A stretch of 12,562 nucleotides of DNA from a virus (taxonomy: Duplodnaviria > Heunggongvirae > Uroviricota > Caudoviricetes), in IMG/VR virus record IMGVR_UViG_2531839666_000031; one strand, 5' to 3'. Below the pieces are notes generated by a model, which was not told the DNA's origin, ran no database searches, and worked only from the letters and a program-made list of their open reading frames with translations. Within the stretch, counting starts at the first letter, position 1; each line of letters opens with the position of its first letter. Of the stretch, positions 7,576-9,714 are shown in pieces. Position numbers and translations under genes: made by a program.

Positions 7576-7674
7576 GACGCTCTCTTTGTTGGGCCTTTAC
7601 TGAATTAACGCAAAATGGCGTTTATCGGTCTGTGGATATGATAATTCAGTTTATTCAGGAACAGGCTGATTATT

Positions 7675-9714
7675 ATGACGTCCAAATGGGTTCAACTATC
7701 ATCAATGCCCGGAAACTTTACTGTTAAAGTTTCCGGTGGTACAGCGGCATTTCTTGAGGCTCCCTTTCCTCCGGCCGAAACAAAAGGAGGAATGACATTT
7801 GCTGACTGTCTCATCAGTTTTAATACACGGGATTGCCTGTGGGTAAGGCCAGTATCCGGTGATCCGAGTGTGGAAATTACCGGAGCGGGTATTGGTGCGG
7901 TCATTCCGTTAAGTGCTGATGTTGCCGGTACTGCTGAACCGTCAGACTGGGATAATGCTGAAACACATACCCGTCCGTCAGGAAATGAAACTGCTTCCAG
8001 CTCCCCTTCCTGGTATTACGTGGTGGTTCTTGCTGGTCAGTCAAACGGTATGGCTTACGGTGAAGGTCTGCCACTGCCGGAGACATATGACCGCCCCGAA
8101 CCGCGTATTATGCAGTTAGCCCGTCGCAGTACAGTCACGCCGGGAGGTAAAGCCTGTCAGTATAACGACATCATTCTGGCCGACCACTGTCTGCATGATG
8201 TGCAGGATATGAGTGGAAAAAATCACCCGAAAGCGGATGTGGCTAAAGGGCAATATGGCACCGTGGGTCAGGGGCTTCACATTGCCAAAAAACTGCTGCC
8301 GTTTATTCCGGCAGATGCGGGGATTCTGCTGGTTCCCTGCTGCCGTGGTGGTTCTGCATTCACGGCGGGTGCTGACGGCACGTACAGTGACAGCACGGGT
8401 GCTTCAGAGGACTCAGCCCGCTGGGGTGTGGATAAGCCGCTGTATAAGGACTTAATCAGCCGGACAAAAGCGGCACTGGCGAAGAACCCGAAAAACCGCC
8501 TGCTTGCTGTGGTGTGGATGCAGGGCGAGTTTGATATTGATGCGAAGCCGACGGAGCATTCTGCGCTGTTTCTGGCGATGGTGGAAAAATTCCGCGCAGA
8601 CCTGGCTGAACAGGCGGAACAGTGTACCGGTGGCAGTGCTGCTGGCGTTCCGTGGATTTGTGGTGATACCACGTATTTCTGGAAACAGAAAAACGAACAG
8701 GCATACCAGGCAATCTATGACGGCTACAAAAATAAAACAGATAAAAACATTCATTTCGTCCCATTAATGACAGATGAAAATGGCGCGAATGTACCCACCA
8801 ACAATCCGGCAGAAGACCCGGATATTGAATCCATTGGTTATTACGGCTCAACGTGGCGTAACAGTGCCGCCACCTGGACATCTACGGACCGGGCCAGCCA
8901 TTTCAGTTCATGGGCACGTCGTGGGATTATTTCCGACCGTCTGGCCACGGCAGTTCTGACTCATGCGGGGCGAACCACAGTAAAAGCCGATGTTCCATCT
9001 TCTGAAACTGAAGCACCAGTGCCGTCACCTTCAGAAACTGAAGCAGTAACCACAACACTGCTGTCTTACCGTGTCAGTGAGTCAGAAGGAAATCTGAAAG
9101 CCCAGGGCTGGGAGCCGGCTGGCGGTAAAGCTGAAATTATCAGTGATGCAGGAGGCACAGGTGGTAAGGCAATGAAACTGACCAAGGAAACAGGTAAATC
9201 ATCCTGGTATCTGGATCATGATGCCGGTACTGGTGCTGAACTGCTGAAAAATGGTGGTTTAATCAGTTGTCGTTTTAAAGTACCGGGCGACCTGGTGGCA
9301 AACCAGTATGTCATGGCGCTTTACTGGCCGGTTTCCTCTCTGCCGCAGGGTGTCACCCTGACAGGGGATGCAGGGAATAATCTGCTGGCATCGTTCTACA
9401 TCCAGACAGACGCAAAAGACCTGAATGTGATGTACCACAATGCAAAAGTGGCAACAAATAACCAGAAACTGGGAACCTTTGGTGCATTTGATAATGAATG
9501 GCATACGCTGGCCTTCCGTTTTGCAGGAAATAACAGCCTTCAGGTTATTCCGGTTATTGATGGTCAGGATGGTGCCGCGTTTACCCTGACGCAGTCACCA
9601 GTAGGAACTTTCCCGGTGGACAAACTCCGCGTAACGGATATCACAAAAAATGCAACTTACCCGGTGCTGATTGACAGCATTGTGGTGGAAGTGAAAAAAG
9701 CGGTAACAGAATAA
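7675..9714 (+). CDS. Three-domain SGNH-type carbohydrate esterase (sialate O-acetylesterase/SASA-DUF303 family, NanS-p-like) with a C-terminal lectin/jelly-roll-like domain
   Basis: 679-aa ORF. Block ..VVVLAGQSNGMAYGEG.. (GQSN nucleophile motif) and later ..AVVWMQGEFD.. are SASA/SGNH signatures. A Pro/Ser/Thr/Glu linker (SSETEAPVPSPSETEA) precedes a roughly 230-aa C-terminal domain. No N-terminal signal peptide. Confidence 0.65.
   Translation: MTSKWVQLSSMPGNFTVKVSGGTAAFLEAPFPPAETKGGMTFADCLISFNTRDCLWVRPVSGDPSVEITGAGIGAVIPLSADVAGTAEPSDWDNAETHTRPSGNETASSSPSWYYVVVLAGQSNGMAYGEGLPLPETYDRPEPRIMQLARRSTVTPGGKACQYNDIILADHCLHDVQDMSGKNHPKADVAKGQYGTVGQGLHIAKKLLPFIPADAGILLVPCCRGGSAFTAGADGTYSDSTGASEDSARWGVDKPLYKDLISRTKAALAKNPKNRLLAVVWMQGEFDIDAKPTEHSALFLAMVEKFRADLAEQAEQCTGGSAAGVPWICGDTTYFWKQKNEQAYQAIYDGYKNKTDKNIHFVPLMTDENGANVPTNNPAEDPDIESIGYYGSTWRNSAATWTSTDRASHFSSWARRGIISDRLATAVLTHAGRTTVKADVPSSETEAPVPSPSETEAVTTTLLSYRVSESEGNLKAQGWEPAGGKAEIISDAGGTGGKAMKLTKETGKSSWYLDHDAGTGAELLKNGGLISCRFKVPGDLVANQYVMALYWPVSSLPQGVTLTGDAGNNLLASFYIQTDAKDLNVMYHNAKVATNNQKLGTFGAFDNEWHTLAFRFAGNNSLQVIPVIDGQDGAAFTLTQSPVGTFPVDKLRVTDITKNATYPVLIDSIVVEVKKAVTE

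Follow-up and report, generated by a model that had tools for sequence, protein, structure and literature searches.

How does a large esterase gene come to stand between the invertase and com genes of a Mu-like prophage, and what could the prophage or its host gain from it? The question is raised by the viral record IMGVR_UViG_2531839666_000031, whose 12,562 nucleotides (nt) form the whole stretch of DNA analysed here (the window). Past the invertase the window carries one long open reading frame (ORF), 7675-9714 on the plus strand, the only long one in the stretch that had drawn attention, encoding a product of 679 residues. This is very probably the gene of a NanS-p-family sialate O-acetylesterase with a lectin-like tail, a fixed accessory gene of the Sp18-type Mu-like prophages whose product would be released at lysis and would aid the nutrition of the lysogen. 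The sequence shows the family and its domains as securely as such evidence allows, and we infer substrate, activity and host benefit from homologues of 78-89% identity that have been characterised.

The three-domain layout of the original prediction is real, with SASA and DUF6645 domains placed by Pfam behind an N-terminal region that Pfam leaves unassigned. The esterase core of SASA/SGNH type is matched by Pfam SASA at residues 116-312 (E 5.5e-12) and, over residues 104-428, by the solved structure of E. coli NanS/YjhS (3PT5, E 5e-118), so that the proposed search with SASA/DUF303 models was positive. The predicted GQSN and WMQGE motifs stand at residues 121 and 281, and the blocks GQS123N, G225/G226, Q283-G284-E285 and R406-A-S-H409 are invariant across a 27-sequence alignment and present in nearly all Mu-type alleles. 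The NanS-type motif set GQSN / QGE / R[AS]SH, taken from the block definitions for these esterases (PMC10462455), is found complete at residues 121, 283 and 406. Ser123 and His409 are the predicted catalytic serine-histidine pair, the residue roles being assigned from the alignment, from background on such enzymes and from the same source. The jelly-roll or lectin-like tail is likewise confirmed, by Pfam DUF6645 at residues 524-642 (E 4e-70) and by a match of residues 459-674 to the solved structure of the NanS-p C-terminal domain, itself lectin-like (6YP6, E 3e-112). In the phi24B C-terminal domain a sugar site of Y510, Y515, Y540 and F611 has been proposed (PMC10462455), and all four aromatics are kept here, as Y545, Y550, Y575 and F646. 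The ratio of nonsynonymous to synonymous substitution (dN/dS) is 0.10-0.21 for the SASA and C-terminal domains, and of the 32 complete Mu-type copies on viral contigs 29 keep the full length (679-693 residues).

The chromosomal NanS/YjhS, which we take to be a single-domain protein of ~326 residues with an export signal, aligns over the full length of the catalytic domain with the same motifs, but the window protein has additional N- and C-terminal domains and no stretch resembling a signal peptide. The highest 15-residue Kyte-Doolittle mean in its first 75 residues is 0.85, which agrees, on hydropathy only, with the predicted absence of a signal peptide. Closer in architecture are the NanS-p esterases of lambdoid phages (933W L0105/z1466; phi24B vb_24B_21/gp84), which have in common with it the SASA/SGNH and DUF6645 domains, the block variants GQSN, QGE and RASH, the sugar-site aromatics and the apparent lack of a signal peptide. 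Lambdoid Stx2 phage 1717 has a NanS-p that is 78% identical to the window protein over residues 102-673 (BLASTP), and another DUF1737-bearing NanS-p allele is 89% identical. The two kinds of protein differ at the N-terminus, which is DUF1737 in NanS-p and an unrelated domain of ~85 residues plus a linker in the window protein, and in position, lambdoid nanS-p lying between stx/Q and the S holin of the late operon (comparison locus L002) and the window gene between gin and com-mom. As in the window, genes for DUF1378 and DUF826 follow nanS-p in lambdoid phages (PMC10462455). The DUF1378 homologue directly after nanS-p in phage 1717 is 53% identical.

NanS-p esterases, described for lambdoid prophages, are thought to favour the growth of enterohaemorrhagic E. 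coli (EHEC) on O-acetylated mucin sialic acids. Recombinant NanS-p from EHEC prophages is active on 9-O-acetylated N-acetylneuraminic acid (Neu5,9Ac2) and on mucin O-glycans (reviewed in PMC8065619). By analogy, the SASA/SGNH domain of the window protein, through Ser123 and His409, would de-O-acetylate the sialic acids of mucin glycans, Neu5,9Ac2 for example, and the C-terminal jelly-roll domain would keep the enzyme on its carbohydrate substrate. Because the protein is apparently made without an export signal, release would come at lysis; the substrate would be reached only on prophage induction, by enzyme either free or particle-borne, and the surviving lysogen population would then use the deacetylated sialic acid. 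Some points weigh against this reading. The esterase could have a specificity unlike that of the lambdoid alleles, this prophage copy has frameshifts in at least three other genes and so may never lyse its host, and a sigma-70 promoter scan of the spacer upstream of the gene gave sites no commoner than in shuffled sequence, none of them convincing.

The extent of the gene differs from that first proposed. The original prediction began it at 7576, but this is merely the first base past the invertase stop codon (7575), and 7576-7674 is a noncoding intergenic spacer of 99 nt. Many NCBI records start at Met11, giving a product of 669 residues. In the alignment residues 1-10, including an invariant Trp5, are kept both by an allele of 60% identity and by a relative of 29% identity, the latter having no Met at position 11. 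We place the start at 7675, with a product of 679 residues, because these residues are kept in diverged alleles and an AGG-rich stretch precedes the ATG.

Whether the gene is a chance passenger or a lasting part of its prophage depends on the surrounding backbone and on how widely the arrangement recurs. Pfam matches to Resolvase, Com and Mom bear out the prediction of a Mu-type backbone with the esterase between invertase and com, and agree with the gene assignments of a prophage of strain 2010C-3347 (L001) to which it is 99.7% identical. That prophage has Mu-type head, sheath, tube, tape-measure, baseplate and tail fibre genes. Past the tail fibre the fibre-assembly gene, inverted, comes first, then recombinase, esterase, DUF1378, DUF826, the minus-strand ORF, Com and Mom, and finally host DNA. 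The right end of Mu and SfMu is built as in the window, with a Gin-type invertase beside an invertible fibre segment and then com with overlapping mom, but without the four genes (3.36 kb) that part gin from com here. From invertase stop to com start there are 58 nt in Mu and 82 nt in SfMu, against ~3.36 kb in the window. It was thus rightly predicted that in Mu the invertase is followed almost directly by com-mom. The idea of a single cargo gene inserted between them holds in part: the extra DNA is there, but it is an accessory block of four genes (esterase, DUF1378, DUF826 and the minus-strand ORF; 7576 to ~10925), and its insertion is not sporadic.

The distribution of the block establishes the latter point. 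A synthetic join of the last 300 nt of gin and the first 300 nt of the com region, used as an empty-site query, matches 233 of 5426 complete E. coli genomes, and in none of them do both halves lie within ~800 nt. The proposed comparison of invertase-com spacing in related prophages therefore separates Mu and SfMu from all 233 Sp18-type genomes, in none of which the invertase adjoins com. The lineage is present in ~4% of complete E. coli genomes, mostly strains that produce Shiga toxin (STEC) among the records listed. N-domain allele A occurs in 205 genomes (up to four copies per genome) and allele B in 28, counts that sum to 233 although the two sets may overlap. In the O157:H7 strain Sakai the Mu-like prophage Sp18 has the same gene order, from ECs_4992 (gin) to ECs_4998 (mom), and its ECs_4993, annotated as a hypothetical protein, has 679 residues of which five differ from the window protein. 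Sp18 has an intact gin and lies in sorM, whereas the window copy has a frameshifted gin and lies in yeaX. With a right end that abuts an Ig-like protein gene in L001 and a fimbrial usher gene in L060, Sp18-type prophages insert at different, essentially random chromosomal sites.

Scans with an N-domain profile found 34 loci in viral contigs and 17 in metagenomic contigs, and all 51 have Mu-type baseplate J, YmfQ, fibre, fibre-assembly or gin genes upstream of the N-domain. DUF1378, DUF826, com and mom then follow in all but three of the 51, as far as the contig reaches. With the window, L001, Sakai, L060, L040 and an INPHARED Mu-like insert (L003) there are 57 loci, and in every one Mu-type tail, fibre or invertase genes precede the N-domain; a second INPHARED insert (LC727895), outside the 57, matches the same block. 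About nine loci have no gin, the esterase following the fibre-assembly gene after ~260 nt, and these (L022, L023, L027, L030, L033, L036, L037, L050 and L057) are an allele-B sub-lineage. A distant locus, L040, is a 72-kb contig of GCA_037428405.1 (57% G+C) that ends inside the esterase gene, the product of which (P0008) is the 29%-identical relative. Upstream it has Mu-type tape measure, DNA_circ_N, Gp45, GP46, baseplate J, Gp48, fibre, inverted fibre segment and resolvase genes, its baseplate J being 30% identical to that of the window. Two small ORFs (58 and 87 residues, with no family match on record) lie between invertase and esterase in this contig, at 9426-9910. The esterase block is fixed in the Sp18-type Mu-like lineage, and is not sporadic because it is present in Sakai Sp18 and in 233 of the 5426 genomes, has no empty site, and recurs in the same arrangement in a distant Mu-like phage. 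The context had been called unusual. This holds relative to the searchable literature, which does not cover several key papers and in which we found none on ECs4993 or on NanS-p with Mu-like phages, but not relative to the genomes, where the arrangement is not rare.

The body of the gene has a history separate from that of its N-terminus. DNA homology to lambdoid phages begins at ~codon 113 and stops just short of the stop codon, at 77% identity. The window SASA and C-terminal domains are 82% and 79% identical to those of lambdoid phage 1717, against 67-72% and 40-73% to other Mu-type alleles. Mu-type copies have two N-domain alleles and a mosaic body; loci L014-L017, for instance, combine an N-domain of 98-99% identity with a SASA domain of 68-69% and a C-terminal domain of 38-45%. 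In the hybrids L018, L023 and L055 Mu-type genes upstream are joined to lambdoid holin, endolysin and Rz genes downstream, com-mom being inverted and further along in L023. The reciprocal hybrid (P0074, locus L059) has lambdoid DNA, DUF1737 and SASA up to ~residue 245, after which window-type sequence, with DUF1378, DUF826, com and mom, runs as far as the Mu end. All four hybrids have their junction within the esterase gene or shortly past it. These sequences indicate that the esterase body is a recombination substrate between Mu-like and lambdoid prophages, the N-domain staying with the backbone. Since both reciprocal hybrid forms are seen and com-mom is inverted in L023, they further suggest that homologous recombination between nanS copies may rearrange the chromosome. 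The prophages carrying the two esterase alleles are also mosaic outside the esterase: L001 and L060 agree at 97-100% in head, portal, tape measure and mom but at 66% in DUF2635, 80% in the sheath, 76% in gpP and 86% in gp45 and gp46.

The 77% identity to lambdoid DNA and the existence of genuine hybrids formed through the esterase gene (L018, L023, L055, L059) might also be read as signs of a recent one-off insertion, or of an assembly chimera, of lambdoid DNA with no lasting role. This we consider scarcely credible, given 57 independent loci, two deeply diverged alleles and many mosaic forms, as well as Sakai Sp18 and the distant Mu-like phage; moreover 9715-10900 has no DNA match in lambdoid phages. 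A recent single insertion is rejected on distribution, with no empty site in any of the 233 genomes of the lineage.

In a long-established prophage gene the exchanged N-terminus becomes the feature to explain. DUF1737, which the original prediction had proposed to look for, is missing, and a different domain of ~85 residues followed by a 27-residue linker takes its place. Pfam gives no match in residues 1-110, and DUF1737 is absent at E<=1 in the whole protein and at E<=0.1 in residues 1-110, whereas the same scan finds it at residues 3-50 of phage 1717 gp44 (NanS-p) with E 1e-15; BLASTP against that protein gives no similarity before residue 102. That the domain is of no recognised kind, as first proposed, is underlined by how few relatives it has. 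When 1.84 billion representative proteins were searched exhaustively with phmmer, five matches came back, made up of fragments of the ~60%-identical allele, the contig-end fragment P0008, in which the same N-domain is followed by GQSN, and P0005. The last, a repeat protein of 1445 residues, we judged a compositional match and not a true relative. Word-indexed protein searches with the single sequence and with a profile gave fragments only, a scan of one genome per species gave nothing, and a profile search of all ORFs of the prophage gave no paralogue. Tblastn with the window and P0008 N-domains against 50,697 phage records found two Mu-like inserts only, both within Stx prophages, and no Sp18-type isolate is present in that collection. 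Five of the eight members of the N-domain alignment (the family and its P0008 relative) weakly match PHROG 4772, phage proteins of 79 residues and unknown function (best E 1.3e-5). The domain is under purifying selection, with dN/dS of 0.04-0.10 within alleles, dN of 0.27 between the two alleles and saturated dS; in contrast, the linkers are only 22-35% identical between alleles. AlphaFold2 gave a mean predicted local distance difference test score (pLDDT) of 33 from the single sequence and of 52 with the 27-sequence alignment, the N-domain remaining below 30.

One explanation of such a domain would extend the nutritional reading. In phi24B, gp84 (NanS-p) is reported in a 2026 preprint to be a processed capsid-decoration protein whose DUF1737, absent from the window protein, binds hexon centres (bioRxiv 10.64898/2026.04.10.717836). 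The domain swapped here is thus exactly the one reported to bind hexons, in proteins otherwise 78-89% identical, and the esterase could be a structural virion protein docked on a Mu-type capsid or tail by its ~85-residue N-domain. We hold this to be possible but rather doubtful. The constant company of Mu-type genes in all 57 loci, including a phage with a baseplate J only 30% identical, is consistent with it, as is the purifying selection on the domain. It also fits that lambdoid alleles have traded SASA and C-terminal parts with this gene while its N-domain stays, mixed cases being prophage-prophage recombinants only, but the same linkage may just mirror the reach of recombination, homology starting only at the SASA domain. 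Nor does the N-domain vary with the capsid, its two alleles being 60% identical in prophages whose major head proteins are 98% identical. There is no paralogue elsewhere in the prophage, and AlphaFold gave no usable model of the domain. Furthermore, NanS-p with DUF1737 is also carried by lambdoid prophages whose heads are of other types. The analogy nevertheless invites a tentative picture, to which we would give the same limited weight, of N-terminal modules as exchangeable virion adaptors, DUF1737 for lambdoid capsids and the ~85-residue domain for the particles of Mu-type myoviruses.

The position of the gene suggests a further alternative, in which the enzyme would deacetylate sialic acid of the O-antigen or capsule on bacteria and so help the Mu-like phage to adsorb or escape. 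The gene does come directly after the tail fibre and invertible host-range segment, in the part of the prophage that varies most (identity is 81% in gin, 66% in the esterase, 80% in the fibre and 60% in the fibre assembly protein, while backbone genes nearby reach 97-99%), and PMC8065619 notes a proposal, made without evidence, that NanS-p generally has a role at the bacterial surface. We regard it as improbable, since the catalytic and lectin domains are close (78-89%) to alleles acting on free Neu5,9Ac2 and mucin glycans, and the protein has no similarity to the anchor domains of tail fibres or tailspikes. To our knowledge, moreover, STEC hosts have no sialic-acid capsules. Release of a mucin-directed sialate esterase at lysis thus remains our preferred reading.

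The remaining features of the locus (Table 1) describe the state of this prophage copy. Its invertase is split by a +1 frameshift (an extra C at 7312) relative to the intact 186-residue gene of L001, which probably locks the invertible tail-fibre segment. This G-like segment is bounded by a 179-nt inverted repeat (75% complementary) within the tail-fibre gene, with arms at 5516-5694 and 6773-6951; it contains a fibre-assembly gene (5937-6509) and an alternative fibre C-terminus (6580-6804), both on the minus strand, and is seen in both orientations among related loci. Further single-base indels relative to L001, at 94, 108, 132, 138, 1612 and 10943, break up the genes for DNA circularisation and for baseplate gpP (ORFs 1201-1659 and 1644-2324), displace the start codon normally used for com, and reflect either a decaying prophage copy or sequencing errors. 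Despite them the esterase protein is identical to that of L001, and it also equals the database entry WP_072141947. Homology to L001 stops at the right end of the prophage, 11955, and the flank (11955-12562) is host yeaX (carnitine monooxygenase reductase), which is interrupted; the junction occurs in none of the 5426 complete E. coli genomes.

Behind the esterase, the first of two hairpins has a U7 tract on the minus strand and no U-tract on the plus strand. A second, at 9779-9792, also just 3' of the esterase stop, again has its U-tract on the minus strand, and the two look like terminators for antisense transcription from the side of the minus-strand ORF. Rfam has no match anywhere in the window, and NCBIfam and PADLOC give nothing for any gene of the block. 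The minus-strand ORF, which has no Pfam match either, lies in a low-G+C stretch (40%); it has 154 residues in Sakai (ECs_4996), is frameshifted in 2010C-3347 and is variable or partly missing in many relatives. Just 5' of com, at 10862-10891, is a palindrome with GATC sites (AATCGATCG...CGATCGATT), reminiscent of the Dam-methylation-controlled promoter region of Mu mom. By this likeness the accessory block would lie upstream of the mom control region.

Table 1. Features of the esterase locus, with coordinates in the window
Feature	Position	Strand	Evidence or detail
Gin-type serine invertase, Resolvase N-terminal domain	7014..7575	+	Pfam Resolvase, E 6e-35
Intergenic spacer, invertase stop to esterase ATG	7576..7674	+	AGGAACAGG 11-19 nt 5' of ATG; read from sequence
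Esterase N-terminal domain, residues 1-85, near-orphan, not DUF1737	7675..7929	+	phmmer, Pfam, PHROG
Linker 1, residues 86-112, fast-evolving, ends ASSSP	7930..8010	+	22-35% amino acid identity between alleles
SASA/SGNH catalytic domain, residues 113-430	8011..8964	+	3PT5 match, Pfam SASA, invariant alignment columns
Linker 2, residues 431-458, short tandem repeat SSETEA / PSETEA (DNA 8996-9045)	8965..9048	+	Direct repeat; low conservation
C-terminal lectin-like jelly-roll domain DUF6645, residues 459-679, and stop codon	9049..9714	+	6YP6, Pfam
13-bp G+C-rich hairpin, 6 nt past esterase stop	9720..9748		Fold -23.2 kcal/mol, z -4.4
Small membrane-type protein with DUF1378, second gene of block	9861..10043	+	Pfam DUF1378, E 1e-38
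DUF826 protein, third gene of block	10079..10324	+	Pfam DUF826, E 2e-15; phrog_311
ORF of 135 residues	10413..10820	-	phrog_26524, E 6e-95, full length
com (zinc-ribbon Com) and overlapping mom	~10926..11827	+	Pfam Zn_ribbon_Com, Mom; Mu backbone resumes

What is new at this locus is that a NanS-p body, its N-terminal module exchanged for another, is fixed in Sp18-type Mu-like prophages. The system as such is not novel, and reference genomes have contained the gene ever since Sakai was sequenced. The catalytic and lectin body is shared, as a fixed gene, by a second and unrelated phage type, transposable and Mu-like, and in O157-type strains this adds one or more sialate esterase gene copies to be counted. 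The exchange of the domain that cryo-EM recently singled out as the capsid anchor provides a clean natural experiment on the roles of the N-domains and on the virion membership of these esterases. Were the N-domain indeed a virion anchor, pathogenic E. coli would have two unrelated phage morphotypes with a mucin-modifying enzyme displayed on the particle, and the enzyme would then seem to serve the phage's own behaviour in mucus, beyond feeding the lysogen. Finally, the gene body common to Mu-like and lambdoid prophages may contribute to chromosome rearrangement.

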